Program-made: the position numbers and the translations under genes
Notes under the pieces: generated by a model
Told to the model about the DNA's origin: nothing
What the model saw: only the letters and a program-made list of their open reading frames with translations
The model's database searches: none
Part shown: positions 31,161 through 55,559 of the stretch, one piece after another
How positions within the stretch are numbered: position 1 is the first letter of the stretch
Layout: each line of letters starts with the position of its first letter
Origin: Deltaproteobacteria bacterium
Lineage (GTDB): Bacteria; Myxococcota_A; UBA9042; PHBI01
Length of the DNA stretch: 61,029 bases
Assembly: GCA_006226565.1 (NCBI GenBank)
Contig: SBGO01000027.1
Coordinates: forward strand, 1-61,029
Reading direction: 5' to 3'

Positions 31161-33887
31161 ATGCCACATCTGCCGCGGATGCTGGTGCTGGTCGCGTGGG
31201 GGCTCGTCGTCAGCGGTGCGCTTGGGTGCGGCGCACAGGGCCCGAGCCCGACGAACGTCGCCGTCGCGATCGCCCCCCTCGACTTGCCCGGCGTCACCAA
31301 CGTCACCTACACCCTGACCGTCTCCAACGAGAGCGGCGCGCAGGTGTGGACGCGCACCCTCGACGCCGACGGCGCCGGCGACGGCGTCGGCTCCGTGAGC
31401 TGGGTCGGGCCCTGCGACGCCGACGACGATCCGGACCTGGACGGCGCCGCGACCAACACCGTCGCGGTCACCATCGACAGCATCGTGACCGCCGCCGGGC
31501 CCCTCGTGGACGGGCTGGACTTCACCAACCCCGCGCCGGCCACCGCGCCCGCCACGCGCGCCGTCGCCTGCCGCGCCAACGCCGACGTCCCCGTCGACTT
31601 CGATCTCACCGTCGCGCGCCGCGCCGCCCAGGGCTTCTTCGACATCGCGGTCGCCTTCGAGGACGTCTTCTGCTCGGCCAAGCTCGACTGCGTGCGAGAA
31701 GGGCAGCCCCTCGAGCTCCTCTTCAACGCCGCGGGAGAGCGCGATCGCACCGTCGTCCTCGGCTTCGCCTGCACCGGAGGGCTCGGCGGCGAGACCTTCC
31801 TCTACCTCGACGCCATCGCCATCGACTGTGGCGCCGCCGGATCGGCGCAGATCGCGCCGGTCGGCCCGGCCGGCAACAAGGGGGCGCTGCCGCCCATCCT
31901 CTTCCAGCACGCCGTCTACTTCGGCGCCGAGCTCCTCCAGAGCGGCGCCACGAGCTGGGGCAAGGCCTACTGGAACGTCGCCCTCGGCATCGACGAGGCC
32001 GCGCTCTCGGCCACCTCGCCCTGCGTGCTCACCGCCCACGGCACCGCGACCTCGATCCGCTTCGACACCGGCGCCGCCCCGACCGGCGCGACCTGGCCCC
32101 AGGTCGACTGGGACGTCACGCTGAACGCCCTCGGGAGCGCGACGCTCACCTGCGCCAACCACGCGGTCTTCGCCCCGGGCAGCGGGGTCGCCGTCAGCTA
32201 CGCCCAGGACGTCGTGTGGCCCTACGAGATGGCGCCCGATCTCCCCAACGACGGGGCCGGGGCGACGGCGAGCGAGAGCGGCGGCAACGCGGTGGCGCCC
32301 GCGTGGGCCACCGGACCGGACCTCGGCACGCTCACCTACGACGCCGCGCTCGACGTGACGCTCACGGCGACCGACGCCGACCCGGCGGACACGGTCACGT
32401 ACTCGAGCCCGGATCTGCCGACCTGGCTCTCCCTCGACCCCGGCACCGGGCGCCTCACCGGGGCGACCGTGGACGAGGTGGCGCTCGGCGCCCTCAGCTT
32501 CGACGTCGTCGCCGACGACGGCCTCCACCAGACGACCCGGACCTTCAGCCTCTACGCGCAGTTCGCCCCCGCCTGCCACACCATCAAGGCCGCGAGCCCG
32601 GGGCTCTCCGGGGTCTCGGTGCACACCCTCGACGCGGTCGGCGACGGCACCGGCGTCTTCGACGCCCTCTGCGACATGACGACCTACGGCGGCGGCTGGA
32701 CCCTGGTCGCCGCGCAGTTCGAGGCCGATCCGGTGCTCTGGGACGAGGGACGGCAGGCGGACTACGACCCGAGCCTGGCGAGCGCCGCCAGCTTCGCCCT
32801 GGTCGGCGCCGACCTCGTCGCCCACAACCAGGTCGCCTTCGGGCGCGCCGCCAGCACCGGCCCGGGCACCTGGGACGTCGCCGCGGTGGACTACCTCCAC
32901 TTCACCTACGACCCGGCGGCCGACTACGCCGAGGTCCCGGTGAACGGGCTCGCCACCACGCGCAGCTACCAGCTCGATCGCCACCTCGGGGGCGTCCACA
33001 ACTCGCACGATCCGGAGCAGTACCTCCAGACCGTGTCACCCGAGTGGCACGACACGCTGAGCCTCGATGCCGGCGGCGGCATGCTCTACACCTGGGCCTA
33101 CTCGCCCAACTACACCACCGTCGAAGGGCGCGGCTTCGCCTTCGAGGCGGCCCGCTACACCGCCCCCGACAGCTTCGCCTGGGCCGTGTGGGTGCGCGAC
33201 GCGCCCGGCAGCGTCGCGCCGAGCTACGCCGACTGCGACGCGTGGAAGACCGCGAACCCCGGCATGAGCGGCCTCTCGGTCCAGGTCATCGACCCGAGCG
33301 GCGCCGACCCGTTCCTCGTGATGTGCGACATGACCAGCTGGGCCGGCGGCTGGACCCTCGCGGCCATCAACTTCGAGCTCGACGCGATCCTCTGGGACGA
33401 GGGGCGCCAGGCGGACTACGAGCCGGCGCTGCGGCCCTCGAAGAGCTTCGCGCTGACCGGCGCCGACCTGCCGAGCCACGGCGAGGCCGCGTTCGGGCGC
33501 CTCCAGTACCTCGCCCCGGGCAGCTGGAGCCAGGGGATGATCGACTACATCGACGTCGTCTACGACCCGAGCGCCGAGTACCTGGAGGAGACCCACGCCG
33601 GCAAGGCGCCGCCCCAGACCGCCTCCTACCAGCTCGATCGGCACCACCACGGCGTCCACAACGGCCACGACCCCGAGGCGATCTACTACGACACGATCGC
33701 CTTCCCGCAATACGTCATCTGGAACGACACGCTGAGCTTCGACGTCGTGACCGGGGACACCACGCCCGACTACACCTGGGCCTTCAGCCCCAACTACACC
33801 GCCGACGACGAGCACAAGGGCTTCGGTTACCTCGGCTCCCTCGTGAACACCCTGGAGCCCTACGGCTGGGCGGTCTGGGTCCGCTGA
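31161..33887 (+). CDS. Modular lipoprotein, paralog 1: conserved Cys-rich N-domain + Ig/He_PIG-like domain + two fibrinogen-like (CDMT..GGWTL) domains
   Basis: ATG 31161; ALGC lipobox; GDGVGSVSWVGPCDA, QGFFDIAVAFEDVFCSAKLDC; LPTWLSLDPGTGRLTG; two repeats ending WAVWVR. Confidence 0.8.
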   Translation: MPHLPRMLVLVAWGLVVSGALGCGAQGPSPTNVAVAIAPLDLPGVTNVTYTLTVSNESGAQVWTRTLDADGAGDGVGSVSWVGPCDADDDPDLDGAATNTVAVTIDSIVTAAGPLVDGLDFTNPAPATAPATRAVACRANADVPVDFDLTVARRAAQGFFDIAVAFEDVFCSAKLDCVREGQPLELLFNAAGERDRTVVLGFACTGGLGGETFLYLDAIAIDCGAAGSAQIAPVGPAGNKGALPPILFQHAVYFGAELLQSGATSWGKAYWNVALGIDEAALSATSPCVLTAHGTATSIRFDTGAAPTGATWPQVDWDVTLNALGSATLTCANHAVFAPGSGVAVSYAQDVVWPYEMAPDLPNDGAGATASESGGNAVAPAWATGPDLGTLTYDAALDVTLTATDADPADTVTYSSPDLPTWLSLDPGTGRLTGATVDEVALGALSFDVVADDGLHQTTRTFSLYAQFAPACHTIKAASPGLSGVSVHTLDAVGDGTGVFDALCDMTTYGGGWTLVAAQFEADPVLWDEGRQADYDPSLASAASFALVGADLVAHNQVAFGRAASTGPGTWDVAAVDYLHFTYDPAADYAEVPVNGLATTRSYQLDRHLGGVHNSHDPEQYLQTVSPEWHDTLSLDAGGGMLYTWAYSPNYTTVEGRGFAFEAARYTAPDSFAWAVWVRDAPGSVAPSYADCDAWKTANPGMSGLSVQVIDPSGADPFLVMCDMTSWAGGWTLAAINFELDAILWDEGRQADYEPALRPSKSFALTGADLPSHGEAAFGRLQYLAPGSWSQGMIDYIDVVYDPSAEYLEETHAGKAPPQTASYQLDRHHHGVHNGHDPEAIYYDTIAFPQYVIWNDTLSFDVVTGDTTPDYTWAFSPNYTADDEHKGFGYLGSLVNTLEPYGWAVWVR

Positions 33888-33893
33888 GGGGCG

Positions 33894-34820
33894 CTACTCG
33901 GCGGGCACGCAGCTCGCCGCCAGCTCCTGGATCTTCACGTTGCTCGCGATCGGGCCGCCTCGCAGGCCCGCCGCGAGGAGCTGCGCCTCGCCGAAGACCT
34001 CGGAGATCGGCCGGTTTCTGGCCCCCATGGTGATCTGGATGCGGCCCCCGCCGATCGGCTCCATGACCTTGGGGACGCTCATGACCTCGCCGTCCACCAG
34101 GATCGCCAGGTAGGCGTCGGTCAGGCGCGCGGTCAGCGTCTCGAAGCGCTGCGCCCCGGCGGCCGTCAGCGCCGTCTGGACGATGGGGGAGTTGTCGAAG
34201 TCGCTGAACGTGGCGCGGGCCTGCTCGATGTCGCCGTCGCGGAGCTCGGACTGTCGGGCGACCGGCCAGATCCGCCAGCTCGGCGCGACGATCTTGCGCC
34301 CGGGGGGCGCGTCGATCCGCTCGGCCGCGGCCTCCTGGGTGCGGGTCGCGATCCCGGCGACCCGGGCTGCCACGTCGGTGCCCTCCGGCGCCGACACGAG
34401 GAGGTAGGGCTCGTCCCGCTCGCGCGCCACCCCGACGCCCTCGCCGAGCGCGGCCTTCACCTGGGCGATGAAGTCCTCTTCGGGGGCGAGCACCTCGCGG
34501 AGCGACAGCTGGTGCGGCTTCGCGAGCGCGTCCCGGACCGCGTTGCGCGCGGCCTCGAAGCCCTCGCAGCGGGCGCCGGCCCGGACCGCGACGTCGACGA
34601 TCAGCCCGCTCTTCGCCGTCTCCTCGAGGGTGATCTCGCCGAGGGTGACGTCGTCGCGCTCGTCCACCACGGCCAGGCGCTCGCGGACCCGCTCGGCGGC
34701 CGCGGCGGGATCCCCGTCGAAGCTCAGCTCGAAGCGCAGGTGCCCGTTGGGCGCCGCGCCGCACGCGACGAGGAGCGTGGCGAGCACCACGGGGCCCGCC
34801 AGGTCGAAGGACAATCGCAT
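33894..34820 (-). CDS. Lipoprotein with stand-alone SecD/SecF P1-head-like domain (no membrane domain)
   Basis: LVAC lipobox; L..GDIEQARA...P.V...LT..GA.RF..LT......LAILVDGEVMSVP.V.EPI.GG.IQIT; GAGGAGG RBS. Confidence 0.75.
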   Translation of the reverse strand: MRLSFDLAGPVVLATLLVACGAAPNGHLRFELSFDGDPAAAAERVRERLAVVDERDDVTLGEITLEETAKSGLIVDVAVRAGARCEGFEAARNAVRDALAKPHQLSLREVLAPEEDFIAQVKAALGEGVGVARERDEPYLLVSAPEGTDVAARVAGIATRTQEAAAERIDAPPGRKIVAPSWRIWPVARQSELRDGDIEQARATFSDFDNSPIVQTALTAAGAQRFETLTARLTDAYLAILVDGEVMSVPKVMEPIGGGRIQITMGARNRPISEVFGEAQLLAAGLRGGPIASNVKIQELAASCVPAE

Positions 34821-34890
34821 CTCACCCTCCTCGGGGAGCGGGTCTCGCCGAGCGCACGCGCGCTCGACGGAGGAGCTCAATCCCGCGAGC

Positions 34891-36342
34891 TCAGGACTTC
34901 TTCCGGCCGATCATGAAGTCGAGCAGCCGGTCGATCCGGGCGCCGTAGGGCGGCAGCAGGAGGCCGATGGTGTTGAGGCGCGCCTGGTGGAAGACCGCGC
35001 GGCGGTGGGAGAAGGTCTCGAAGCCTTCGCGCCCGTGGTAGGTCCCCATCCCGCTGGGCCCGACGCCGCCGAAGGGCAGATCGTCCTGAACGATGTGGAG
35101 CATGGTCTCGTTGACCGAGACGCCCCCCGAGATCGTGTCGCGCAGCACCCGCTTCACGCGATCTCGGTCGCGGTCGAAGTAGTAGAGCGCGAGCGGCCGC
35201 GGGCGGGCGTTGACGTAGCGGATCGCGTCGTCGAGGTGGTCGTAGGGCACCACCGGGAGGACGGGGCCGAAGATCTCGTCCTGCATGACGCGCAGCGCGT
35301 CCGGCGGGTCGAGGAGGAGGGTCGGCGCGAGCTTCTTGCGCTCGGGGGGCAGGGCCTCGGCGGCCGGGTTGATCTCGACGACCTGGACCTCGGCGTCCCG
35401 CGCCTCGTCGACGTAGCCGGCGACGCGGCGGTAGTGCGCGTCGTTGACGACCGCGGTGTAGTCGGGGTTGTCGGCGAGGGTGGGGTAGGCCTTGCGGACG
35501 GCCTCGCCGAAGGCGGTGACGAAGGCGTCGACCTGATCCCGCGGGCACAGCACGTAGTCGGGCGCGATGCAGGTCTGCCCGGCGTTGAGGCACTTGCCGA
35601 CGGCGACGCGCTCGGCCGCCTTCTCGATCGGGTAGTCGCGGTGGACGATCGTCGGCGACTTGCCCCCGAGCTCGAGGGTGACCGGCGTGAGGTGCTCGGC
35701 GGCGGCGCGCATGATGTGCCGGCCGACCCCGGTGGAGCCGGTGAAGAAGAGGTGATCGAAGGGCAGCCGCGAGAACGCGGCGCCGACGTCGGGGCCCCCG
35801 TTGACGACCCCCACGACGCGCGAGCTGAAGAGCTCGTTCATCATGTCGGTGAGGACGACGGCCGTCTGCGCGGTGATCTCGGACGGCTTGAGGAGGACGC
35901 GGTTGCCGGCCGCGATCGCCGAGGCGAGCGGCACCATCGCGAGCTGGAACGGGTAGTTCCACGGGGCGATGACGCCGACCACGCCGAGGGGCTGGTAGAG
36001 CACCTCGTTCGCCGCCGGCTTGAACAGCATGTCGACGTGACGGCGCGAGGGCTTCATCCAGCGCTTGAGGTGCTTCTGGACGTACTTCACGTAGCTGACG
36101 ACGACGAAGACCTCGGCCATCGCGGTCTCGTGCCGCGAGCGGCCGCCGAAGTCGGCGTCGATGGCGTCCGCGATGCGGCCCTCCCAGCGGCGGGTCGCGT
36201 CGAGGATCCGCTCGAGCGCGTCCATGCGCTGCGCGTAGGTGAGGCCTCCGGCCTCCTCCCACCCGGTCTTCAGGGCGGCGAACGCCTCGTGGACGACGGC
36301 GTCGGCCGACGCGGCGGGCTCGACGGACGAAGCGGCGGTCAT
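34891..36342 (-). CDS. Aldehyde dehydrogenase (coniferyl-aldehyde dehydrogenase-like, ALDH3 type)
   Basis: IAPWNYP, LKPSE, FFTGSTGVG, LELGGKSP, NAGQTCIAPDY, QDEIFGPVLP, LPFGGVGPSGMG; AGGAGGT RBS before ATG 36342. Confidence 0.93.
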   Translation of the reverse strand: MTAASSVEPAASADAVVHEAFAALKTGWEEAGGLTYAQRMDALERILDATRRWEGRIADAIDADFGGRSRHETAMAEVFVVVSYVKYVQKHLKRWMKPSRRHVDMLFKPAANEVLYQPLGVVGVIAPWNYPFQLAMVPLASAIAAGNRVLLKPSEITAQTAVVLTDMMNELFSSRVVGVVNGGPDVGAAFSRLPFDHLFFTGSTGVGRHIMRAAAEHLTPVTLELGGKSPTIVHRDYPIEKAAERVAVGKCLNAGQTCIAPDYVLCPRDQVDAFVTAFGEAVRKAYPTLADNPDYTAVVNDAHYRRVAGYVDEARDAEVQVVEINPAAEALPPERKKLAPTLLLDPPDALRVMQDEIFGPVLPVVPYDHLDDAIRYVNARPRPLALYYFDRDRDRVKRVLRDTISGGVSVNETMLHIVQDDLPFGGVGPSGMGTYHGREGFETFSHRRAVFHQARLNTIGLLLPPYGARIDRLLDFMIGRKKS

Positions 36343-36456
36343 GCGGCACCTCCTGACTCTGGAGGCCCGCAAGTTACGCCCGCGCTCGGCGGTGGTCCAG
36401 TCGGCGCCGGCTCCGCGGAGGAGGCGCCAGTCGCCGAGGCGCCTCCCCGCGTTCGC

Positions 36457-36819
36457 TCAGTTCGCTTCGCTGGTCGCGGAGGCCTTGACCTCCTCCATGT
36501 CGAGCTCGCCCACCTTCTCGACGATCTCGTCGAGGGCGGAGGCCGGCAGGGCGCCCGCGGTGCGGTAGACCACCACGCGGTCGCGGATGACCATGAGCGT
36601 CGGGATCGACTGGATCTGGAAGTAGGCCGCGAGCTCGCGCTGGTCCTCGGTGTCCACCTTCGCGAAGACCGCGTCGGGGTGCTTCTCGGAGGCCGCCTCG
36701 AAGGTCGGCGCGAACATCCGGCAGGGACCGCACCAGGCCGCCCAGAAGTCGATCAGGACCGTCTTGTCCTCGGCCACGAGCTCGTTGAAGTTGTCTTTCG
36801 TCAGCGTCACGGTCGCCAT
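36457..36819 (-). CDS. trxA: Thioredoxin
   Basis: C-terminal part of ORF 36457..38253: IDFWAAWCGPCRMFAP, IQSIPTL. Confidence 0.92.
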   Translation of the reverse strand: MATVTLTKDNFNELVAEDKTVLIDFWAAWCGPCRMFAPTFEAASEKHPDAVFAKVDTEDQRELAAYFQIQSIPTLMVIRDRVVVYRTAGALPASALDEIVEKVGELDMEEVKASATSEAN

Positions 36820-36869
36820 GGAGGCTCCTCCGGTTGCGATCCCTTCTCTGGAATCGATCGGACGGGACA

Positions 36870-38258
36870 TTAGGCGCGGATCGGTTCCGCGCAACCGACC
36901 CTCGCACGATTGTCGTCGCGTGCCCACGGGCGGCGGCGAACTCGCCACCAGGTGATGGCCGCGAAGCAGACGATCTCCGCGGTCAGCCCGAGCCACGCGC
37001 CCAGCGCGCCGAGGCCCGCCGGCATCGCGAGCGCCCAGCCCACCGGGAGCATGACGAGCCACTGCGTCGTCACCCCGGCGAGCATGACGAAGCGGGTGTC
37101 CCCGGCCCCGTTCAAGACCCCCTGGAAGACGTTGCAGGCGGCGTCGAAGACCTGGAAGGCGGCGCCGACCAGCAGCAGATCGCGGGCCAGCACGAGCACC
37201 TCCGGCGTCGGATCGAAGATGCCGAGGAGCGGATCCGGCGCCAGCACGAAGACGAGCCCGCAGACCGCCATCAGCCCCGCCGCCAGGCGCAGGCCGTGGC
37301 GGCGCAGGTCCGCGATCTCCGACGCCCGGCCGGCCCCGACGAGCTGCCCCGCGAGGATGGAGCAGGCTTCGCCGATGCCCATGCCGGGCAGGAAGCTCAC
37401 GCTGATGATGCGCACGGTGACCACGTGGGCCGCCAGGTGCGCGTCGCCCACCTGCGCCAGGATCGCGCTGAAGACCGCGAAGCTGCCGACGTGCAGGGCC
37501 GAGCGCAGCCCGAGCGGGGCCCCGAGGCGCCACACGAGCCCCATCAGCGGCCGCCCCGGGCGGCGGGGGTAGCGCGCGATCTCGCGCCGGAGCCGCGCCG
37601 CCAGGATGACGAAGGACACGCCGTAGGCGAGGACCGTCGCCGCCGCGGCCCCGGCCACGCCCATCGCGGGCACCGGGCCGAGCCCGTGGATGAGGAGCGG
37701 GTCGAGGGCGATGTTGGTCGCGTTGGCCGCGAGGGTGGCGACCATCGGCAGGCGGGTCTCGCCGCGCCCCTGGAGCCACGACGACAGCGCGTAGGTCCCG
37801 AAGGCCAGCGGGCCGCCGAGGACGCGCACGGCGAAGTAGCTCGCGGCGTGGGCGGAGGTCTCCGGTGACGCGCCCTGCAGCGTGAACGCCACGTCCGCGC
37901 CGAAGGCGAGCGACATCTCGACCGCGCCCATCCCGAGCGCGAGCCACAGCCCGAGCCAGAGCAGCCGCTCGACGGCGCCCTCGTCGCGCGCACCGGTGCG
38001 CTGCGCGACCGCGACCTTCAGGCCGGTCAGGAGGCCGTCGCCGAAGCTGTGGACGGTGAAGTGGGTCGACAGGGCGAGCCCCATCGACGCCAGCTGCGGC
38101 GTGCCGAGCTGGCTGACGAAGAGCGTGTCGGCCACCGACATCGCGGTGTACGACAGCATCGAGACGACGATGGGCCAGGCGAGGTCGACGACCTGGTGGA
38201 GGCCGACGGCCCTGGGCAGGCTTTCTTTTTCGAGCGGGCGAGACACGGGACACCTCAT
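36870..38258 (-). CDS. MATE family efflux transporter
   Basis: LAWPIV, VAQRTGA, QGRGET..PM...NIALDPLLI.G, GVAGAA.AT, QLVGAG, GAGDTR; multiple TM segments; exact start uncertain. Confidence 0.9.
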   Translation of the reverse strand: MRCPVSRPLEKESLPRAVGLHQVVDLAWPIVVSMLSYTAMSVADTLFVSQLGTPQLASMGLALSTHFTVHSFGDGLLTGLKVAVAQRTGARDEGAVERLLWLGLWLALGMGAVEMSLAFGADVAFTLQGASPETSAHAASYFAVRVLGGPLAFGTYALSSWLQGRGETRLPMVATLAANATNIALDPLLIHGLGPVPAMGVAGAAAATVLAYGVSFVILAARLRREIARYPRRPGRPLMGLVWRLGAPLGLRSALHVGSFAVFSAILAQVGDAHLAAHVVTVRIISVSFLPGMGIGEACSILAGQLVGAGRASEIADLRRHGLRLAAGLMAVCGLVFVLAPDPLLGIFDPTPEVLVLARDLLLVGAAFQVFDAACNVFQGVLNGAGDTRFVMLAGVTTQWLVMLPVGWALAMPAGLGALGAWLGLTAEIVCFAAITWWRVRRRPWARDDNRARVGCAEPIRA

Positions 38259-39045: not shown

Positions 39046-41727
<2,682 letters not shown>

Positions 41728-42029: not shown

Positions 42030-43952
42030 CTAGCCCGCGATGCGCACGGCCTCGCTGTGGACCTTCATGCGGAGCCGCAGGACGTGGGCCGCGCTGCGCT
42101 CCATGAGGTGCAGCGCGTAGGCCTCGTTCCGCTGCACGAAGCGCAGCGACAGCTCCACCGCCCCGGCGAGCCAGGCGGTCGGCTCGCTCCCGAGGACGCC
42201 GGCGCGGGCGTGCTGCGCGAGCGCGGCCGACAGCGACGCGTCCGTCGACAGCCCGACCCGGGCGTGGGCGGCTCGCTCGGCCTCGAGGCTGTAGGCCAGG
42301 GCCATGGCGACGTCGAGCTTCACCTCGCCGTCGAAGCTGACGAGCACGGTCTCGGGGCGGGCGTCCTCGTCGGCCAGCAGGATCGGCCGGCCGAGCGGCG
42401 TCCGGTGCTGCGAGGTCGCCTCGAGGGCCGTCGCGACGCGCCCGGCGACCCAGCTCGCGAGCGGCTGCGGCATCGGCTCGTGCATCGTCTCGAGGTCGCT
42501 CAGCAGCTCGGCGAGGGACAGCCCGTGGACGAGCTCCTCCACGACCAGGTCCGAGCCCGCGACGCGGCGGATGTCGAGGATGCGCGCGATGTTGGGGTGC
42601 TGGAGCGACTTCGCCCGGCCGATCTCGGACAGCGCCGCGTCGGCCTCGGCCGCGCCGTAGCCGCTCGAGGGGCGCGTGAGCTGGCGGACGGCGACCGGGA
42701 TGGGCACCCCGTGGTGCCCGCGCAGCGCGCCGACGAAGGTGTCGCCGAGGGGTCCGCGTCCGATGCGGTAGAAGAGGAGCAGGTCCCCGAGGTCGATGCC
42801 GACCGGCACGAAGCGCGTGCCCGGCAGCGGCGTCACGTGGTGCCGCGCCTCCATCCGCGCGCGCATGCTCGCCAACGCGGCGAGGAGCTCGTGCGGATCG
42901 CCGTCGGTCGCGCCGTCGAGGCTCAGCCCGCGCCGCGTCACGGTGTGTCGGCGCTGCCCCGTGCGGGGCTTGGTCCGGTTGAGCTTGCGGGGGGAGGCGG
43001 CGCTTCGCGGGATCGGCGGCGGCTCGAAGTTGAGCCAGACCGGCGAGGTCAGCGCGTTCAGCGCCGCGGTGACCCGGCCCTCGTGGTCGCGCGCGGTCAC
43101 GCCGGCGCTCCGCGTGAGGTCCTCGAGCTGCTTGTCGGAGAGCCTCGCGAGGGTGTCGCGCAGGAGCCCTCGCAGGTCGGCGCCCAGCTCGGAGTGATCC
43201 GTCGGCGCGAAGCGCAGGCTCCGGAGGGGGTGACCGGCGATCCACGCCAGCATGTGGGTGACGTAGTGCCGGTACCCCTCGCATTCGGAGAAGACCTCGC
43301 TGTGCTCGCACACGAAGTCGAGGTCTTCCTCCGGGTGCCGCCCCCGGTGCGGCTCGCGTGCATGGAACGCCAGCAGCAGCGCAATCGCCGGGTCCTCCTC
43401 CAGGGCTTCGACGTCTTCGAGGCGCTCGAAGCCGACGCCGCGCGCGTAGCCGCCGACCGCGCAGAGCGCCGCCTCGGCTCCATCGGCGCCGAAGTAGACC
43501 TGCACCGCCGGGCGCAACGCCGCCAGCAGCCCGACGAGCCGCAGCGGGGCCACGCCGAGACCTGTCGTGGACCAGTCACGCGGCGGGGAGGCGCCGCGTC
43601 CAAGACAGGCTCTGGCGATGAGCTCGAGCGGCGCGGGCCACGTCAACGTGGTCACGTTGGCGCTCTGCTCGTGCTCGTCGAGGCGATACCACAGGATGCG
43701 CTCCCGTACGCTGAGGGGGGCGATCACTTCCGGGGCCGACCCACCCAGGATGACGAGGTGGTCGATATGCCCGGCGGTCAGCTCACGCAGACCCCACGAG
43801 CGCTCAGCAGCGTTGCCGACGTCGCCAGCGCCCGCCAGGCGAAGCGTCGCGGTGACGAGGGCGCGAAGGCTCACGTCCCCACCCACGACTCCTATCCTGG
43901 GAGCACCGGTCTCGCCGCAACCTGCCACGGGTTGCAGCTCCTGGCGTTCCAT
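42030..43952 (-). CDS. Hypothetical protein with a degenerate, truncated Ser/Thr kinase domain (pseudokinase)
   Basis: RIGRGPLGDTF, VAVRQL (K to R), LQHPNIARILD, EELVHGLSL; HRD and DFG replaced (DEDARPE, DVA). The start (ATG 43952) is uncertain. Confidence 0.55.
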   Translation of the reverse strand: MERQELQPVAGCGETGAPRIGVVGGDVSLRALVTATLRLAGAGDVGNAAERSWGLRELTAGHIDHLVILGGSAPEVIAPLSVRERILWYRLDEHEQSANVTTLTWPAPLELIARACLGRGASPPRDWSTTGLGVAPLRLVGLLAALRPAVQVYFGADGAEAALCAVGGYARGVGFERLEDVEALEEDPAIALLLAFHAREPHRGRHPEEDLDFVCEHSEVFSECEGYRHYVTHMLAWIAGHPLRSLRFAPTDHSELGADLRGLLRDTLARLSDKQLEDLTRSAGVTARDHEGRVTAALNALTSPVWLNFEPPPIPRSAASPRKLNRTKPRTGQRRHTVTRRGLSLDGATDGDPHELLAALASMRARMEARHHVTPLPGTRFVPVGIDLGDLLLFYRIGRGPLGDTFVGALRGHHGVPIPVAVRQLTRPSSGYGAAEADAALSEIGRAKSLQHPNIARILDIRRVAGSDLVVEELVHGLSLAELLSDLETMHEPMPQPLASWVAGRVATALEATSQHRTPLGRPILLADEDARPETVLVSFDGEVKLDVAMALAYSLEAERAAHARVGLSTDASLSAALAQHARAGVLGSEPTAWLAGAVELSLRFVQRNEAYALHLMERSAAHVLRLRMKVHSEAVRIAG

Positions 43953-48262: not shown

Positions 48263-48319
48263 CGGACGGCTTACGATCCCGCGAGGTTGCACGTGCCAAG
48301 CGGGGGTGGCGGGTGTAGG

Positions 48320-48748
48320 ATGCGCGCGATGGAAAAGCACCACCCCACCCTCCTCCGGGTGATGACGCCGTTCCCACAGTGCATCGCGCCGAGCGCGTCC
48401 CTCGACGAGGCGGCGGCGGTGATGGAGCAGCATCAGATCCACCATCTCCCGGTGCGCGAGGACGACGCCCTCGTCGGGATGCTGACCGAGCGGGACCTGG
48501 TCACGGCGCGCCTCGCGGCCCGCAGCCACGAGGAGCGGGTCACCGTCGGCGAGGTGTGCCGCCGCGACGTCCACGTCGTCGACGTCACCCACTCCCTCGC
48601 CGCGACCGTGCGGGAGATGGCCCAGCACCACGCCGGCTACGTGCTCGTCAAGCGCGACGAGCACCTCGCCGGCATCGTGACCACCACCGACCTGTGCGCG
48701 CTGCTCGCCGAGATCCTCGACCCGGACATCGACGACATCATCGCCTGA
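48320..48748 (+). CDS. CBS domain-containing protein
   Basis: VMTP.P, IHHLPV...LVGMLTERDL, GYVLV...LAGIVTTTDL. Confidence 0.88.
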   Translation: MRAMEKHHPTLLRVMTPFPQCIAPSASLDEAAAVMEQHQIHHLPVREDDALVGMLTERDLVTARLAARSHEERVTVGEVCRRDVHVVDVTHSLAATVREMAQHHAGYVLVKRDEHLAGIVTTTDLCALLAEILDPDIDDIIA

Positions 48749-48751
48749 GCC

Positions 48752-48791
48752 AGAAGCGCGAAGCTCCCCTCCGGGCGGGCCGGAGGAGAGC
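48752..48791 (-). terminator. Terminator-like hairpin oriented on the minus strand
   Basis: 12-bp stem fully paired only on the minus strand (one G-U), followed by TTCGCGCTTCT. Confidence 0.55.
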
Positions 48792-48854
48792 TGGGTAGAA
48801 GGTGGGTCCGAGGGGCGGCACTGCGTGGGGTTCGGTCACACCGCCTGGGGATAC

Positions 48855-49013
48855 GGGGGCGTCCAGCGCCAAGCAAACTGCCTGGCCGGCGGATGCGACC
48901 CGCTGGGCGGCCCGACGGAAGCTTGAAAGACGTCCGGTCTGTCTGCGCTTCCGTCGAACCACCGAGCAGGCCGCCTCCTTGGCCATTCAGCTCGCTTGTC
49001 ACTGGCCGACCCC
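48855..49013 (-). ncRNA. Candidate structured non-coding element: ~160-nt rod-like hairpin
   Basis: Manual pairing: 58 of 65 aligned positions pair on the minus strand (50 Watson-Crick + 8 G-U, which would be A-C mismatches on plus); 24-nt apical loop 48923..48946; no family recognised. Confidence 0.6.
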
Positions 49014-49197
49014 TGGGCGGTTCGGCTGCGGATGTCGTCCTGGACCCTCGATCGCCCGCTGGGCGTCTCGCGGGGCATCGACCGGCGTCCGCCGCCGAAT
49101 CTTCACGCGGGGGGCGATTTTCTCCCCGCCAGGACCCGCCCGGGCGGCGCTCACCCGCGCGGGTCGCGGGCTTCGGCGATGTTGGGGACGCGATCCG

Positions 49198-51069
49198 TCA
49201 GCGGACCCAGATCCGTCCCCACTCGCCGAGCTGCGTGCCGAGGCCGACGGTCGAGTAGTCCTGGCCGCAGTGCGGCTCGGCGGTGCGGACGATGTAGCGG
49301 TTCACGCCGCCGCCGAAGCCGTGCCACTCGGCGTAGTTCTGGTAGTAGGTCAGGTTCGAGGGCTTGGCGACGTTGTCCGACGGGTCGTAGGTCTCCGTCA
49401 CCGACCCGCTGATGTCCTCGAGGTTGGTGTGGCCCGCGGTGGGCAGGGTGCGGAAGCGGTACACCGTGACGCCGTTGCTGGCGTGGCACTGGAGGCGCAT
49501 CGCCTGGTACGGCGGCACGTCGGTCTGCGTCCAGGGATAGACGAACGCGCCGAGCGTCGCGTACTGGGCCGGCACCGAGTAGCTCGGGTACCAGCCGCTC
49601 GCCATCAGGGTCCACCCGCCGCCGTCGGTCGTCATGTCGCAGTACACGTCGCGCGGCGGGTACGGGCCCGCGCCGTCGGTGTCGATGGTGTACACGCCGT
49701 CGCCGGTGAGGCCCTGGTACGCGTAGCTCGGCGCGGTCGGGTGGAGGTAGGCGTCGCAGCTCGGGGCGTAGGTGCCGTCGTACCAGCTCCGCCCGGTCCC
49801 GTTGGCCACGACACCGAACACGAAGGGCGCCGCCGGGATGCTCGGCCCGAAGTGGTAGGTGAAGCCCTCTTCGGCGCCGCCGGTGGCCGTGTAGACGGTC
49901 GTCACGGCGGCCGTCGCGCTCCCGAACGTGAGCTTCTCGGAGCCGCAGGTCCCGAGGTCGGCGTCCCAGCGCACCACCGGGTAGACCGCCCCGGCGGCGA
50001 TCTGGCCGCCGTCGACGTTGTCGCTGGTGTTGGCCGAGTCGTCGGCGGTGGCGCGCGTCCGGAGCCGGCAGCTCCCGATGTCGCCGGTCACGCCGAGCGC
50101 CACGTTCCAGTACACCTTCTGGGCGTCGACGCCGCCGCTGGTCAGCTGCTCCTCGCCGCGGAAGACGGCCACCTGGTAGAGGTAGGTGTCGGCGTCGACG
50201 GCGTTGACCCCGACGGCCGCGCAGCCCGTGACCGCGCCCGCCGGGCAGAGGTTGCCGGGCCCGCCGGCCGGGTCGAGGGTCAGGTCGGCCGCGAAGTCGA
50301 CCCCGCTGTTCGGGGCGGTGCAGTCGAGCTCGAGCGCGTCCATGTAGAGCTCGGTGACGACGTCGGCGGCCGTCCCCGCGGTGCACGCGAAGCCGAGCAC
50401 CAGCGTCCGGGCGCGGGCGCCGGTGGCGTCGAAGAGCAGCTTGATGTCCTCGGCCGGCGTGCAGCCGTTGGCGTCGGCGTCGTCGCAGCAGTCGAGCTTG
50501 GCCGAGCAGTAGATGTCGTCGAAGTTGAGCGCGATGTCGAAGAAGCCCTGCTGGGCGGGGCGCATCAGCGTCACGTCGAACTGCACGGCGGCGTCGACGT
50601 TGGGCGCGCAGGTCACGACCTGCGTGAGCGGCCCGGTCACGGGCACGGTCGGGTTCTGGAAGTCGACCGCCGTCCCGGTCACCGCCCCCGCCCCGGTCGC
50701 GGCGCCCGAGGCGAAGGTGCCGGCGTCCGCCGCGAGGATGTCGCCGTCGTACACGCCGACCACCCAGACCTTCACCGTGTTCTCGCTCACCGCCGGGTCG
50801 GCGTCGCACGGGCCGACGTAGCTCGCCGAGCCCGCGCTGTCGCCGTGGGTGCTCGAGGTGACGCGCCGCTGCCACACGACCGCGCCGTCGCCGTTGTCGA
50901 CCTCGAGGTCCCAGACGACGTCGCCCACCCCCACGAGGTTCAGGGCCGCGACGTCGATCTGCACGCCGGGGCCGTCGAAGCCTCGGCCGGAGACCGGCGC
51001 GTCGCCTTCCGCAGCGCACGCCCAGAGACCTGCACACAGGGCGAGCGCGACCAGAGCACGCGATTGCAT
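49198..51069 (-). CDS. Modular lipoprotein, paralog 2: conserved Cys-rich N-domain + one fibrinogen-like (YCDMTTDGGGWTL) domain
   Basis: ATG 51069 with GAGGT RBS; LWAC lipobox; GDSAGSASYVGPCDA, QQGFFDIALNFDDIYCSAKLDC; ends GRIWVR. Confidence 0.85.
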   Translation of the reverse strand: MQSRALVALALCAGLWACAAEGDAPVSGRGFDGPGVQIDVAALNLVGVGDVVWDLEVDNGDGAVVWQRRVTSSTHGDSAGSASYVGPCDADPAVSENTVKVWVVGVYDGDILAADAGTFASGAATGAGAVTGTAVDFQNPTVPVTGPLTQVVTCAPNVDAAVQFDVTLMRPAQQGFFDIALNFDDIYCSAKLDCCDDADANGCTPAEDIKLLFDATGARARTLVLGFACTAGTAADVVTELYMDALELDCTAPNSGVDFAADLTLDPAGGPGNLCPAGAVTGCAAVGVNAVDADTYLYQVAVFRGEEQLTSGGVDAQKVYWNVALGVTGDIGSCRLRTRATADDSANTSDNVDGGQIAAGAVYPVVRWDADLGTCGSEKLTFGSATAAVTTVYTATGGAEEGFTYHFGPSIPAAPFVFGVVANGTGRSWYDGTYAPSCDAYLHPTAPSYAYQGLTGDGVYTIDTDGAGPYPPRDVYCDMTTDGGGWTLMASGWYPSYSVPAQYATLGAFVYPWTQTDVPPYQAMRLQCHASNGVTVYRFRTLPTAGHTNLEDISGSVTETYDPSDNVAKPSNLTYYQNYAEWHGFGGGVNRYIVRTAEPHCGQDYSTVGLGTQLGEWGRIWVR

Positions 51070-51284
51070 GATCAGACCTCGTGGGGGGACGGGAGCAGCT
51101 GTCTGGAGTGGATGGTGGCTACCGCGGCCCGGCATCACCTTGCGGAAAACGCTAGCATCTTCGGTGCTGCGGAGGAAGTGTGCGCCGCACACGCGTGCAA
51201 CGCGCGCCGCGACGAGGGCCCGCCGCGAGTCGACGGGACCGAGGTGCATGCGGCGGGTTTCGGCGGTATCGTCCGCGGGACGCC

Positions 51285-53537
51285 ATGCCCGCCAAGCCCC
51301 CAGCCGACGCGAACCCCTACCCCCACGCCCGCGGGGATGGCTCGGCCTATGACCGCTACCTGGCCGGGATGGACGCGTCGATGCGGCAGAAGGTGGCGCT
51401 GACGGTCGCGCACCTCCTCGGCGTGGGCGATCTCGCCGACATGGGGATGGGCTCCGGGACGGGCAGCTTCGCGCTGGCCTCGCTCTACCCGGGGCTCTCG
51501 GTGGTCGGCGTCGACGTCGACCCCGGGATGGTCTCCCGCGCGGCCGAGCGCTACGTCCTGCCGAACCTCCGCTTCATCGTCGGCGACATCGCCGAGCCCT
51601 GCTTCCCCGCCGGCTCGGTCGAGGCCATCCTCGACTCCTCGGTCCTCCACCACGTCACGACCTTCAGCGGCTACGATCGCGCCGCCGCCGTGCGGGCGCT
51701 GGCCGTTCAGGCCGATCAGCTCGCGGATCACGGCGTCCTCGTCGTGCGCGACTTCCTCGACCCCGGGCCGGGGCGGGTCTGGCTCGACCTCCCCGGCGAC
51801 GACGGCGACGGCTCGGACGACCCGCGCCGCTGCTCCACCGCCGCTCTCTTCGAGCGCTTCGCCGGCGAGTTCCGGGCCGCCCGCGAGCCCGCCGCCCGCG
51901 GCTTCGCGATGGCGCCGGTCGCCCCGGGCGCCGACGACCCGCCGCTGCCCGCCGGCTGGCGCCGCTACGCCTGCGAGCGCGTCCACGCCGTCGAGTTCGT
52001 GCTGCGCAAGGACTACCGTCACGACTGGGAGCTGGAGGTCCTCGAGGAGTACACCTACCTGACCCAGCCGCAGTTCGAGACGACCTTCGCGGCGCTGGGC
52101 CTCCGGGTCCTCGCCTCGACCCCCATCCGCAACCCGTGGATCGTCCAGCACCGCTTCGCCGGTCGCTTCGTCCTGCGCGACGAGGGCGAGCATGCGCCGC
52201 TGGACTGGCCCGCGACCAACTACGTCATCGTCGGGCAGCGGGTCGGGCCGACGCGCGGCGTGGGGTTTCGCGAGGAGCCCACCGCCGAGGCCCCCCGGGA
52301 CCTCGCGCTGAGCCACTGGCGCCGGCTCGACAGCGGCGTGGTCTACGACGTCGTCCGCCGCCCCGGGCGCACCGTGGACGTCGTGCCGTGGTTCGTCGCC
52401 GACGGCGCCCTCTACGTGCTCGCGCGCCTCGGTCACCCGCGCCCCATCCTGGCGAGCGCGCGCGCGGCCGGCGGGACCCTCGACGGCAGCGCCCCCGTCA
52501 CCTGGGTGCACGAGGCGCTGACCGTGCGCCAGACCGACAAGCCCCTGGGCCAGACCGTCGAGGAGCGGCTCACCGCGCTCGCCGGCCTCGGCCCCGACGC
52601 GCTCCTCCGCTTCGACCGGGGCCCGGTCTACTACCCCTCGCCCGGCGGCGTGCAGGAGGAGGTCCGCGCGGTCTTCGTCGAGGTCGCGCCCACCGCCGTC
52701 GCCGCCGCCGAGCCGGGCCCGAGCGGGCTGAGCGACGCCGGCCCGCTCCGCGCCATCGAGGTCCGCCAGGTGCTGCGCGCCGCCCAGGTGGGCGGCCTCC
52801 CCGACGCACGGCTCGAGCTCAACGTCTACGCCATCCTGCTCAAAGGCGGGCGCGACGTCGGCGCCTGGATCGGGGCCGAGATCGACGTCCCCGAGGCCGC
52901 GCCCCCCGCCGACCGGACCACGATGGCCGCGCTGGCCGAGCGTCCGCGTCGGCGCCGCTTCCGTTCCGCGCCGGCCGAGGCGTCGAGCGGCTTCCTCTCG
53001 GTCACCCGCGCGCGCTTCGTCGAGCAGGCCGCGGACGGCGCCGCCGTGGGCGAGCGCACCCTCGAGTACGTGCTCCCGACGCGCTTCTCCGCGGTCACCG
53101 TGACGGTGGCGTGCCTGCGCCGCGCGGAGGGGCAGGTCTGGCTCGGGCTCGACGACGACGACCTGCCGGCGTCGCAGTGCTTCGACGGCCACAGCGAGCT
53201 GCTCGTGACCCCCGCCTGGCGCCTCCCGCGCGCGGTGGTCGGCCCCCGGGCGGCCGAGGCCTTCGTCCGGGCGCGGCTCGCGGCCGAGTACGGCGTCAGG
53301 GGGGGGCCCCTGACCGAGCTCGGCGGGCGCTACCATCCCTCGCCGGCCGTCACGCCGGAGGTGGTCCACCCCTTCGCCCTCGCGGTCACCGCCGAGACGC
53401 CGGCGGCGCGCGCGCTCCGCTGGGTGCGGCTCGAGGACGCCGTGACCCAGCGCGACCGGCTCGTCGACGGCCACCTCCGGGTGGTCGCCCTCCGCGCCGC
53501 CCACGCGCTCGGCCTCCTCGCCTCGGCGCCCGCGTAG
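51285..53537 (+). CDS. Class I SAM-dependent methyltransferase fused to two degenerate Nudix-like domains
   Basis: ADMGMGSG, VVGVDVD, FIVGD, SSVLHHV; later YYPSPGGVQEEV and YHPSPAVTPEVVH NudF-like segments lacking a canonical Nudix box. Confidence 0.7.
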   Translation: MPAKPPADANPYPHARGDGSAYDRYLAGMDASMRQKVALTVAHLLGVGDLADMGMGSGTGSFALASLYPGLSVVGVDVDPGMVSRAAERYVLPNLRFIVGDIAEPCFPAGSVEAILDSSVLHHVTTFSGYDRAAAVRALAVQADQLADHGVLVVRDFLDPGPGRVWLDLPGDDGDGSDDPRRCSTAALFERFAGEFRAAREPAARGFAMAPVAPGADDPPLPAGWRRYACERVHAVEFVLRKDYRHDWELEVLEEYTYLTQPQFETTFAALGLRVLASTPIRNPWIVQHRFAGRFVLRDEGEHAPLDWPATNYVIVGQRVGPTRGVGFREEPTAEAPRDLALSHWRRLDSGVVYDVVRRPGRTVDVVPWFVADGALYVLARLGHPRPILASARAAGGTLDGSAPVTWVHEALTVRQTDKPLGQTVEERLTALAGLGPDALLRFDRGPVYYPSPGGVQEEVRAVFVEVAPTAVAAAEPGPSGLSDAGPLRAIEVRQVLRAAQVGGLPDARLELNVYAILLKGGRDVGAWIGAEIDVPEAAPPADRTTMAALAERPRRRRFRSAPAEASSGFLSVTRARFVEQAADGAAVGERTLEYVLPTRFSAVTVTVACLRRAEGQVWLGLDDDDLPASQCFDGHSELLVTPAWRLPRAVVGPRAAEAFVRARLAAEYGVRGGPLTELGGRYHPSPAVTPEVVHPFALAVTAETPAARALRWVRLEDAVTQRDRLVDGHLRVVALRAAHALGLLASAPA

Positions 53538-53651
53538 GGCGTCGCCTCCCCCGCGAGCGGGTCCCGACCATTTCGTCTTGCGGCGCAACATGGTAACGCA
53601 CAGGGTGCTCGGCGCGTCGCCCCCCGCGTCGGTTGGAGTGGTGCTCCCCCC

Positions 53652-55559
53652 ATGCATCTGCGACCGCATACGGCCCTGGTGGCCCTCGCTCTATTCGCGG
53701 GACCCGGTGCCTGCCTCGACCACGCCGCCGGCCCGCCGGGGCACGGCGCGCGGGTCGCGGTCGACGTCGCTGCGCTCGATCTCCAGGGCGTGGGAGACGT
53801 GGTCTGGGACGTCGAGGTGGTCAACGGCGCCGCCACGCCGGAGGTGGTCTGGCAGCGGCGGCTGACGTCGTCCGGATACGGCGACGGGGCGGGCTCGGCG
53901 AGCTACGTCGGGCCGTGCGACGCCGACGCGGCCGACAACACCGTTCGCGTCTGGGTCGTCGGCATCTACTCCGCCGCGGTGAGCGACGCCGGCGCGTTCG
54001 CCGCGGGCTCGGACACCGGGCTCGGCGCCGTCGTCGGCGATCCGCTCGCCTTCCAGAACCCGACCGCCAGCGGCCCGCTCGAGCGCACGATCACCTGCCG
54101 GGCCGACGCCGACACCGAGGTGCAGCTCGACGTCTCGCTCCTGCGCCCGGCGCAGCAGGGCTTCTTCGACATCACCGTGAGCTTCGGAGACGTCTTCTGC
54201 TCCGCCAAGCTCGACTGTGAGGACGACGCGGGGGGCGACCTCGAGCTCCTCCACAACCTCGACACCGGGACCCGTGAGATGACCGCGGTCCTGGGCTTCG
54301 CCTGCACGAGCGACGTCGCCGGCCCGACCTACCTCTACATGGACGACGCCCGCATCGACTGCACGGGCTTCCCCACCGCGCCGATCCTCGTCGACGCGGC
54401 GTCGAGCGGCCGCGTGGATCTCGCCGGCCCGTTCAGCGCCAACGCCGACGGCTACCTCTTCGCCGCGGCGGTGTATCGCGGCGTCGAGCAGCTGGGCTCC
54501 AAGGCGTACTGGAACCTGAGCCTCGGGCTCGACCAGACGCGCTTCGCCGCCGCCGGCGACTGCGTCTTCACCACCCGCGCCACGGTCGTGTCCGCGCCGC
54601 TCGACGTCGGCCCGGCGGGGTTCGAGCTGCCGGCGGACCAGGTCTACCCCGTCATCGACTGGGTCGTGCCCCTGTCCGACGCCGGCGGCCGCGTCTGCAC
54701 CCGCCACCAGGTCGACCAGCCCGACAGCGGCGTCTACACGACCTACGTCGGCTACCTCAGCGCGCCGAACCAGTTCACCTGGGCCGCCGCGCCCGTCGCC
54801 TTCCCCATCCAGTTCGACCGCTCGGGCCCGTCGACGGCCCGCGCGTGCGTCCCCGAGTGCAGCCACGGCGGCGTCTGCGCCGATGGCCTCTGCGAGTGCC
54901 CCTCGGGCTGGGAGGGCCCGGCCTGCGAGACCCAGGTCATCCTCGCCTCCTGCGAGGACTACCGCGGGACCCCGCACGACGTCGGGGACGGCGACTACCT
55001 CGTCGATCCCGACGGCGACGCCGGCGCGGACCCGCCGTTCACCGTGTACTGCGTCATGTCGACCGTGCCGGCGGGCGACTTCCTGACGCTCCCGACCCAG
55101 GGCAGCAACAAGAACTTCAGCCGCCGCGACGGGGCCGCCTCGCCCACGGGCTGCGGCACGGTCAGCGGCGGCGACCCAGGCGGCGCCTACAGCTACTACG
55201 AGAAGCTCCGCATCAACCCCGCGACCCGCGTCATCACGACCTCCGACCGGACCTTCGCGACCCAGATCGGCCAGGTGAGGTTCAAGCTGTGCGCCACCGG
55301 CGCGCTGTCGTGGAACACCTGGCTCAACTACGGCGTCGCCTGGGACAGCTACGACAGCGGCTCCCACCGGGGCACCGCGAACATCGACCTGACCGGGACC
55401 CCGTTCATCGTCTCGACGGCGTCGACCTTCATCAACAGCGGCTACCTCCCCGCCGGCACGACCTCGATCTCCGGCGACCGCAAGATCGTCAACCTGACCG
55501 GCGGCGGCCACAGCGGGCAGAGATACGCGAGCTACCTCAAGCTCGACTTCGCGCCCTGA
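53652..55559 (+). CDS. Modular exported protein, paralog 3: conserved Cys-rich N-domain + EGF-like + GON-like domain
   Basis: GPGAC lipobox-like; GDGAGSASYVGPCDA, QQGFFDITVSFGDVFCSAKLDC; CSHGGVCADGLCECPSGWEGPAC; KLRINPAT..DRTFA..ANIDLTGTPF..VNLTGGG. Confidence 0.82.
   Translation: MHLRPHTALVALALFAGPGACLDHAAGPPGHGARVAVDVAALDLQGVGDVVWDVEVVNGAATPEVVWQRRLTSSGYGDGAGSASYVGPCDADAADNTVRVWVVGIYSAAVSDAGAFAAGSDTGLGAVVGDPLAFQNPTASGPLERTITCRADADTEVQLDVSLLRPAQQGFFDITVSFGDVFCSAKLDCEDDAGGDLELLHNLDTGTREMTAVLGFACTSDVAGPTYLYMDDARIDCTGFPTAPILVDAASSGRVDLAGPFSANADGYLFAAAVYRGVEQLGSKAYWNLSLGLDQTRFAAAGDCVFTTRATVVSAPLDVGPAGFELPADQVYPVIDWVVPLSDAGGRVCTRHQVDQPDSGVYTTYVGYLSAPNQFTWAAAPVAFPIQFDRSGPSTARACVPECSHGGVCADGLCECPSGWEGPACETQVILASCEDYRGTPHDVGDGDYLVDPDGDAGADPPFTVYCVMSTVPAGDFLTLPTQGSNKNFSRRDGAASPTGCGTVSGGDPGGAYSYYEKLRINPATRVITTSDRTFATQIGQVRFKLCATGALSWNTWLNYGVAWDSYDSGSHRGTANIDLTGTPFIVSTASTFINSGYLPAGTTSISGDRKIVNLTGGGHSGQRYASYLKLDFAP

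Follow-up and report, generated by a model that had tools for sequence, protein, structure and literature searches.

A large family of predicted lipoproteins in uncultured Myxococcota with a constant cysteine-rich N-terminal domain and variable C-terminal modules

Three genes lying within 25 kb of each other on contig SBGO01000027.1 of a deltaproteobacterial genome assembly (GenBank GCA_006226565.1; GTDB Myxococcota_A, UBA9042) encode predicted lipoproteins that begin alike and end in unrelated modules. This raises the question of what the shared N-terminal domain (N-domain) is, and why it should be joined to such different C-terminal parts (tips or tails). The stretch of DNA analysed, referred to as the window, comprises positions 1 to 61,029 of the contig (61,029 nucleotides, G+C content ~72%), and genes in it were called from codon-position GC. 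The three genes are p1 (31161-33887, plus strand; 908 amino acids, aa), p2 (49198-51069, minus strand, start at 51069; 623 aa) and p3 (53652-55559, plus strand; 635 aa). Their N-domain defines a real, large and apparently undescribed family. The reading that we favour, with somewhat more than even confidence, is that the members are lipoproteins of the outer membrane whose constant module, a pedestal or docking unit, holds out ligand-binding tips that can be exchanged.

When each protein was used as a tblastn query against the window, exactly three copies of the family were found, with 37-43% identity between the N-terminal regions over 380-510 aa (E 1e-46 to 1e-81). All three open reading frames reported in the initial annotation of this DNA are thus present, the middle one on the minus strand. 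The conserved blocks that had been picked out there (GD..GS.S.VGPCDA, F.NP, R.A.QGFFDI...F.D..CSAKLDC, VLGFACT, LY.D, K.YWN..LG and W) all reappeared in a three-way alignment. The genes had also been called unlinked paralogs. Three paralogs they are, but the word unlinked is loose, since p2 and p3 lie 2.6 kb apart with a single methyltransferase gene in between.

The N-domain had been described as unassignable to any known family, and our searches bear this out. In this region neither the three window proteins (E<=1) nor 21 N-domain-only members (E<=10) matched a Pfam or NCBIfam profile. No match was found in PHROGs or, by phmmer and profile search, among the sequences of the Protein Data Bank (PDB), and comparison with a viral structure library using Foldseek returned nothing specific. 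No known family was thus recognised in these sequence libraries, and structure comparison, described below, gave only a generic likeness to tandem immunoglobulin (Ig)-like domains.

How widespread is this domain? A word-indexed search returned 131 relatives; among 120 listed relatives, the names given by the source were all those of 'Deltaproteobacteria', Myxococcales or Myxococcota metagenome-assembled genomes (MAGs). When 1.84 billion cluster representatives were searched exhaustively with a profile, 1248 proteins were retrieved at E<=1e-3 (929 at E<=1e-30), each representing a cluster at 50% identity, with lengths from ~380 to >2100 aa. Throughout the 120 listed relatives and the 150 best representative matches, the module was always single and N-terminal. 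In GTDB species-representative genomes, 281 loci were confirmed; locus-level counts and gene neighbourhoods refer to the best 79 of these 281. Among the best 79, 52 are located in the MAG HGW-Deltaproteobacteria-14 (which therefore holds at least 52), 15 in HK-STAS-MYXO-48 from activated sludge and 6 in the closed 9.29 Mb chromosome OW818691.1, and ten loci contain two or three members. The large genomic expansion suspected from the three copies in the window is hence well supported by the number of clusters, the number of GTDB loci and the copy number of a single MAG. As judged from sequence, the family is specific to a lineage of uncultured Myxococcota, the only genomes in which it was seen. 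One member contig (L050, CAYNFK010000082.1) was deposited as 'uncultured Enterobacteriaceae bacterium'; its G+C content of 71% makes mis-binning or mislabelling the most likely explanation. For the window, a match was found in a freshwater-sediment metagenome. Since no relatives were present in IMG/VR contigs, GenBank phages or PLSDB plasmids, a mobile-element or viral origin was rejected.

The lipoprotein nature of the proteins, claimed from the three window genes, holds across the family. The lipobox cysteine was invariant in an alignment of 21 sequences and at least 90% conserved in one of 89 sequences, and the strict PROSITE lipobox pattern PS51257 was matched by 174 of 225 N-complete members, with a median cysteine position of 19. 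In p1, signal peptide and lipobox (…SGALG-C23) are encoded by 31161..31229 (plus strand), and Cys23, the predicted lipidation site, aligns with the family lipobox cysteine; the equivalent residues are Cys18 in p2 and Cys21 in p3. Protein p3 is one residue off the strict pattern (Pro at -3), and its cysteine aligns with that of the family. The 10-15 aa that follow the cysteine are rich in Gly, Ala, Pro and Asp and constitute a tether. Lys at position +2 occurred in one case only among the N-complete members. In Myxococcus xanthus, lipoproteins lacking Lys at +2 are taken to be sorted to the outer membrane, according to a passage of PMC5562445 that cites Bhat et al. 2011; because this residue is absent here, the family members are likewise predicted to be sorted to the outer membrane.

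The conserved module extends over 350-415 aa in the family. It covers about aa 24-350 of p1 (31230..32210, plus strand; delimited by tblastn and by alignment to p2 and p3), about aa 19-415 of p2 (49825..51015, minus strand; delimited by alignment and an AlphaFold model) and about aa 22-375 of p3 (53715..54776, plus strand; delimited by alignments, an AlphaFold model and the conservation profile). The N-domain of p2 is a long variant with additional Cys-containing insertions. Eight cysteines are invariant (C89, C149, C183, C189, C218, C237, C304 and C349; p3 numbering here and below), and on account of this invariance they probably pair as four disulfides. Two motifs, R165-x-A-x-Q-G-F-F-D173 and C183-S-A-K-x-D-C189, are invariant as well, as are the polar residues D154, R165, Q169, D173, S184, K186, D188, R208, E279 and N288. 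Conservation is highest at residues 71-90, 151-190, 211-220 and 271-290 and drops beyond ~370.

The fold of the N-domain is predicted with high confidence to be all-beta: the N-domain of p3 modelled alone by AlphaFold reached a mean predicted local distance difference test (pLDDT) score of 85.8, and in the model of full-length p2 its values were mostly >85-90 up to ~aa 415. With either model, Foldseek searches of the PDB yielded weak matches (E about 3e-4, TM-score <0.2, 7-11% identity), the best of which were tandem Ig-like structures from the Gram-positive backbone pilins RrgB, SpaD, T6, BcpA and PitB, arrestins, C3b and antibody light chains. No internal sequence repeats were detected by hhalign among the three putative subdomains. 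As the structural matches are all of this generic tandem Ig-like kind, the models are read as a stack of beta-sandwich subdomains with no specific recognisable relative. In both models the only N-domain segment modelled poorly was AxQGFFD[IV], the most conserved motif of the family, with pLDDT values <50 in p3 (residues 167-177; window 54150-54182) and of 61-72 in p2 (residues ~171-190). This invariant yet poorly modelled loop may be ordered perhaps only on contact with a partner, a ligand or another subunit.

A strand that becomes ordered only in an oligomer might look the same in a monomer model, and the proteins are predicted lipoprotein precursors with a tandem beta-sandwich N-domain. Both features recall type V pili, the analogy drawn in the initial annotation, whose subunits are cleaved lipoprotein precursors polymerised by donor-strand exchange; the variable domain would then be a tip adhesin. 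The analogy did not hold up. Neither a Pfam FimA nor an Mfa match was obtained with the sequences and thresholds given above, no FimA or Mfa1 structure appeared at a meaningful score among the 50 best PDB matches that Foldseek gave for each model, and two Bacteroides 'putative adhesins' were returned only at E 0.03-0.04. Moreover, C-termini are unrelated between members, and because of this variability there is no conserved C-terminal strand that could be donated; nor is there a pilin-gene operon. We therefore regard subunits of a type V-like pilus as a scarcely probable explanation.

A different role for the N-domain would be that of the active part, a new all-beta enzyme or a membrane-active effector, to which the variable C-termini serve as targeting modules in the manner of the carbohydrate-binding modules of carbohydrate-active enzymes. 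Proteins in which a catalytic domain stays constant while its binding modules vary are common, conservation of the N-domain is very strong and includes invariant polar residues, and the existence of members without a tip implies that it works alone. Yet no enzyme was matched by sequence or by fold, the Foldseek matches being non-catalytic Ig-like stalks; the module sits beside the lipid anchor, which is where a stalk is expected, and eight invariant cysteines suit a structural role. On balance, an enzyme or effector is a decidedly unlikely alternative to a pedestal.

The second half of the question concerns the tips. Scanning of 96 members with Pfam revealed more than 30 partner families. Fibrinogen_C was present in 21 of the 96 members, FGE-sulfatase in 10 and RCC1 in 8, along with many types of EGF domain. 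Further partners were Gly_rich_2, ALK_LTK_GRD, TIG, Laminin_G_3, COLFI and the phage Gp38 adhesin, as well as TNFR_c6, Disintegrin, SPRY, DUF7483, Cadherin-like, PD40 and Big_6. The partner families listed are of binding or adhesion types, and no toxin domain is among them. To what extent N-domains and tails share their history was seen by comparing 203 tails with BLAST, which resolved them into 73 sequence clusters. Tails were homologous over at least half of their length in only 5% of the pairs with 60-70% N-domain identity, in 43% of those with 70-80% and in 100% of those with at least 90%. Tail homology is thus decoupled from N-domain identity up to about 70-80%, which we take as direct evidence, at the level of sequence, that tips have been swapped by recombination, or replaced very rapidly, on a conserved chassis. 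Together with the number of partner families, these data corroborate the earlier description of a constant N-domain with swappable tips.

Some members do without a tip. Fourteen of these, about 410-440 aa long, have a short extension with a conserved CCxxPCC motif at its C-terminal end, e.g. …GCCADPCCAE (P0086, P0091, P0099, P0106, P0107, P0112, P0116, P0117, P0147, P0154, P0182, P0208, P0218 and P0232); it might bind metal, act as a sorting signal or serve in crosslinking. Because tip-less members exist, the N-domain presumably has a function of its own.

For the window proteins, the tips named in the initial annotation were recovered by Pfam and NCBIfam scans, i.e. an Ig and two fibrinogen-like domains in p1, one fibrinogen-like domain in p2, and EGF plus GON in p3. 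In p1, a putative Ig domain (He_PIG, Pfam PF05345, aa 386-464, E=1.3e-10; 32316..32552, plus strand) is followed by a first fibrinogen-like domain of the YCDxxxxGGGW type (32562..33206, plus strand; NCBIfam NF040941 and the N-terminal profile part of Pfam Fibrinogen_C) and by a second (33207..33884, plus strand; same scans and comparison with the first copy), which ends in ...WAVWVR. The two copies are tandem duplicates, 49% identical. In p2, a linker of low AlphaFold confidence (aa 419-430) leads into a single fibrinogen-like (GGGWT_bact) tip at aa 432-623 (49201..49776, minus strand; NF040941, E=9.7e-16) ending in ...IWVR. In p3, an EGF-like domain (aa 396-427; 54837..54932, plus strand; Pfam EGF_Teneurin and EGF_2) precedes a GON domain (Pfam PF08685, aa 433-623, E=2.2e-6; 54948..55520, plus strand). 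The GON match scored 28.1 bits against a cutoff of 22.6 and is almost end to end (profile positions 3-186 of 199); the same family is found in the relatives P0001 and P0120.

The label 'fibrinogen-like' needs a narrower reading. NF040941, a model of a 46-aa motif with a cutoff of 30 bits, scored 55.8 and 57.5 bits on the tips of p1 and p2, and Fibrinogen_C matched these tips just over its cutoff and over profile positions 3-46 of 221 only. In p1 and p2 the label thus holds for the N-terminal subdomain of the tips and not for a whole lectin fold; with a match limited to the first ~45 of 221 positions, a full fibrinogen-related fold is conjectural. AlphaFold modelled the p2 tip confidently at aa 431-496 only, and because its confidence does not extend beyond aa 496, a lectin-like binding site in the p1 and p2 tips is an assumption. 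Beyond the YCD…GGGW segment these tips are highly divergent: the whole p2 tip was matched by P0034 only, and its relatives outside the family mostly have the ~40 aa YCD…GGGW motif alone in common with it. A literature search on fibrinogen-like domains together with Myxococcota turned up no publication.

Tip types also occur in proteins without the N-domain, both in the same genomes as the family, e.g. L004_4, and in other phyla, the fibrinogen-like type in many. Two neighbours of family genes illustrate such mosaics. One, at 5717-7687 (plus strand) of locus L004, combines TNFR-like repeats with two GGGWT fibrinogen-like domains and no N-domain. The other, at 86-3802 (plus strand) of locus L006, is a protein of 1238 aa with DUF4215-like Cys-rich repeats and a C-terminal hydrophobic, Arg-rich tail. 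The reuse of tip types by these neighbouring secreted proteins suggests a pool of modules common to several anchoring chassis.

Taken as lipid-anchored pedestals, the proteins could work as follows. The type II (lipoprotein) signal that the sequences carry would direct export, and lipidation would take place on the conserved cysteine; the mature protein would then be sorted to the outer membrane under the Lys +2 rule. There, the short Gly/Ala/Pro/Asp-rich tether, presumably disordered, would connect the lipid to the predicted all-beta module of 350-415 aa, stapled by probably four disulfides. This rigid module would act as a constant pedestal that pushes the C-terminal part away from the membrane. 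It may in addition dock to a shared partner or self-associate through its RxAxQGFFD, CSAKxDC and GDGAGSxSYVGPCD loops, a role suggested by conservation beyond what a spacer needs, by the invariance of these loops and by the occurrence of tip-less members. The tips, in turn, would be ligand-binding modules, and it is these that recombination among paralogs appears to have shuffled; they comprise fibrinogen-like, GON and COLFI domains, EGF arrays, the C-type-lectin-like FGE-sulfatase fold, ConA-like domains, RCC1 propellers, TNFR repeats and phage Gp38-like glycine-rich domains. Judged by the expansion of the family, one chassis would thus offer tens of specificities per genome, and most likely the tips would adhere to or recognise glycans or proteins that are exposed by prey, by particles or by other cells.

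Several points weigh against this reading. No partner of the N-domain was found, and among the best 79 of the 281 loci no gene recurs beside family members. Sorting is predicted by a rule derived from M. xanthus, which may not be transferable to this lineage. The most conserved motif, QGFFD, is the one part of the N-domain with a poor AlphaFold model, and the invariant polar residues (D, E, K, R, Q and N) could equally be the marks of an active site. For the tips of p1 and p2, neither profile nor AlphaFold model confirms a complete fibrinogen-like fold. As to expression, the sole sign of transcription, a weak one, is a 198-nt wastewater metatranscriptome contig on the gene of a relative, and no RNA runs for the window were among the three runs found. 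The proteins could, finally, face the periplasm instead. They would then be outer-membrane lipoproteins taking part in envelope structure or sensing, in the orientation that most bacterial outer-membrane lipoproteins adopt, and no surface-export system was found near family genes in the window or at the 79 related loci. This orientation does not readily explain members of >2000 aa with long EGF, TNFR or RCC1 arrays, adhesin-type tips, including the phage Gp38-like one, and lectin-like folds. Likewise, at least 50 shuffled paralogs per genome suit diverse external ligands better than envelope housekeeping. We thus consider a periplasm-facing family unlikely.

If the tips are indeed displayed outside the cell, a more far-reaching proposal can be made, which we put forward tentatively and regard as possible though doubtful. 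The N-domain would be a previously unknown Myxococcota module for surface display or docking, either read by a lipoprotein surface-export or co-receptor system or self-assembling via QGFFD and CSAKxDC, and the family, with its fibrinogen-like, C-type-lectin-like, TNFR, EGF, COLFI and GON tips, would be a combinatorial pattern-recognition repertoire, akin to innate immunity, by which uncultured predatory myxobacteria recognise prey or partners. Were this true, it would offer a parallel to invertebrate FREPs and to the MAT fibres of Bdellovibrio, on a new chassis and with at least 50 specificities per genome.

Gene context is a further source of evidence. The window is a piece of core chromosome, with genes for a hybrid histidine kinase, Rho, RF1, YebC, RuvB, TonB/ExbB, PFK and a Ser/Thr kinase, and further ones for an aldehyde dehydrogenase, thioredoxin, MatE, PPDK, SpoU, a CBS protein, a CDP-alcohol phosphatidyltransferase and DAHP synthase. 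Downstream of each of p1, p2 and p3 lies a convergent gene. The same arrangement was seen for 41 of 72 family genes, and a tightly coupled co-oriented downstream gene for 3 of 72, so that family genes appear from their arrangement to be mostly monocistronic and dispersed among housekeeping genes. All-against-all clustering of the neighbours revealed no recurrent partner gene; the largest cluster consisted of other Cys-rich or glycine-rich secreted mosaic proteins. The dedicated secretion locus that had been expected alongside the family was found neither in the window nor near the 79 related loci. Across 88 upstream regions, k-mers were no more enriched than they were in shuffled controls, i.e. 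no shared upstream motif was detected.

These neighbourhoods bear on another explanation, a system like that of the Myxococcus lipoprotein toxins SitA, in which the N-domain would be the escort domain of a lipoprotein cargo for outer membrane exchange and the polymorphic C-termini would be effectors. The architecture is the one described for SitA, namely a lipobox, a family-specific N-domain of ~375 aa and modular polymorphic C-termini in Myxococcota (PMC8546572, PMC5562445). But the tips found here are binding domains and not nucleases, no named Myxococcus, Stigmatella or Cystobacter protein is among the matches listed, and sitAI genes are always operonic, whereas the downstream counts given above, with p1 to p3 all convergent, are not those of operons. 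A SitA-like system is accordingly very improbable. A toxin-immunity organisation in general was rejected on the same gene counts and on the lack of a toxin domain among the partner families listed. Diversification of FGE-sulfatase tips by a diversity-generating retroelement was also considered and set aside: no reverse transcriptase lies within 10 kb on either side of FGE-sulfatase-tipped P0041 at the one locus checked (L080), and p1 to p3 have no such tip.

Several neighbours in the window deserve a record of their own. Divergent from p1, 29421-30965 (minus strand) encodes another predicted lipoprotein (…LSCLTAGVAC), with an acidic low-complexity linker of ~100 aa rich in Asp, Ala and Thr and a C-terminal region of ~400 aa that matches no Pfam family. 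On the other side, 7 nt past the p1 stop and convergent with it, 33894-34814 (minus strand) encodes a protein of 306 aa whose sole Pfam match is the SecDF P1-head, which is unusual as a stand-alone protein. The gene between p2 and p3 (51180-53537, plus strand) specifies 785 aa with an S-adenosylmethionine-dependent methyltransferase domain at residues ~66-171 only; the other ~600 aa are without Pfam match, and the gene is not recurrent beside family genes elsewhere. At 42030-43553 (minus strand), a protein of 507 aa shows protein-kinase matches that are weak (E about 1e-3) and partial, covering the N-lobe only, and may be a degenerate kinase or pseudokinase; a normal Ser/Thr kinase domain is encoded at 28294-29124 (minus strand). 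The cluster at 19169-24013 (minus strand) contains TonB (21813-22916) and ExbB (23348-24013) and adjoins two genes without Pfam match (19169-19810 and 19807-21630); no link between it and the lipoprotein family was found. At the window end, an open reading frame at 60651-61010 (minus strand) matches the restriction-endonuclease-like domain REase_MTES_1575 (E=8.8e-11).

A conserved domain of 350-415 aa with eight invariant cysteines and without Pfam, NCBIfam or PDB relative merits a family entry and a structure. The host lineages are known only from metagenomes (groundwater, activated sludge and freshwater sediment). As a hidden Markov model, the constant domain provides a simple handle to catalogue the binding repertoire of uncultured predators. 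The bacterial use of modules usually associated with the extracellular matrix of animals (TNFR, disintegrin, EGF arrays, fibrinogen-like, COLFI, GON and the ALK glycine-rich region) has a bearing on the origin and horizontal movement of modules of this type.

How does the family compare with systems already described? In Bdellovibrio, prey recognition has recently been linked to repertoires of mosaic adhesins, and in Myxococcus, kin discrimination to polymorphic lipoproteins. The MAT fibres of Bdellovibrio bacteriovorus have a conserved beta-rich N-domain of ~130 aa and chimeric adhesive tips (Caulton et al. 2024, PMC10769870); strain HD100 has 21 members, which form trimeric beta-helix fibres and of which 13 end in an S74 chaperone-protease (PMC10769870). 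In each case a predatory or predator-related lineage carries a repertoire of paralogs, in which a conserved beta-rich N-domain comes right after the signal peptide and highly diverse chimeric tips lie behind it. However, the MAT N-domain is not reported to be lipid-anchored, whereas the module described here is 350-415 aa long and predicted to be lipidated and rich in disulfides. No Peptidase_S74 match and no fibre repeats are among the families listed here, no sequence relationship between the two was found, and the copy number is higher here, with at least 50 per genome.

SitA proteins resemble the family in their lipoprotein character: a lipobox is followed by a family-specific escort domain of ~375 aa and a modular polymorphic C-terminus (PMC8546572). 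Common to both are the predicted outer-membrane location, a family-defining N-domain of similar size, polymorphic C-termini, expansion in Myxococcota and disorder in the residues that follow the lipobox. In SitA the C-terminus is a nuclease, and an immunity gene, SitI, is paired with it downstream, often with an upstream sitB (PMC5562445, PMC8546572), unlike the adhesion- or lectin-type tips and monocistronic genes found here. The family is thus set apart from SitA by its C-termini and gene organisation, the N-domains being compared in size and position. With the sortase-assembled pilins RrgB, SpaD, T6, BcpA and PitB, the family shares elongated stacks of Ig-like beta-sandwiches, the structural match being weak. 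In contrast to these pilins, the family members have an N-terminal lipid anchor and conserved cysteines and no sortase context, and the C-termini of p1 (…WAVWVR), p2 (…RIWVR) and p3 (…LDFAP) show neither LPXTG nor a hydrophobic segment. The family thus lacks defining features of MAT fibres, SitA, type V pilins and sortase pilins, and the strategy itself, a constant anchor with a repertoire of variable tips, is already known. Beside those of Bdellovibrio and Myxococcus, the family would represent a third independent chassis for this strategy, and a far more expanded one, with at least 50 paralogs per genome and more than 1200 sequence clusters.

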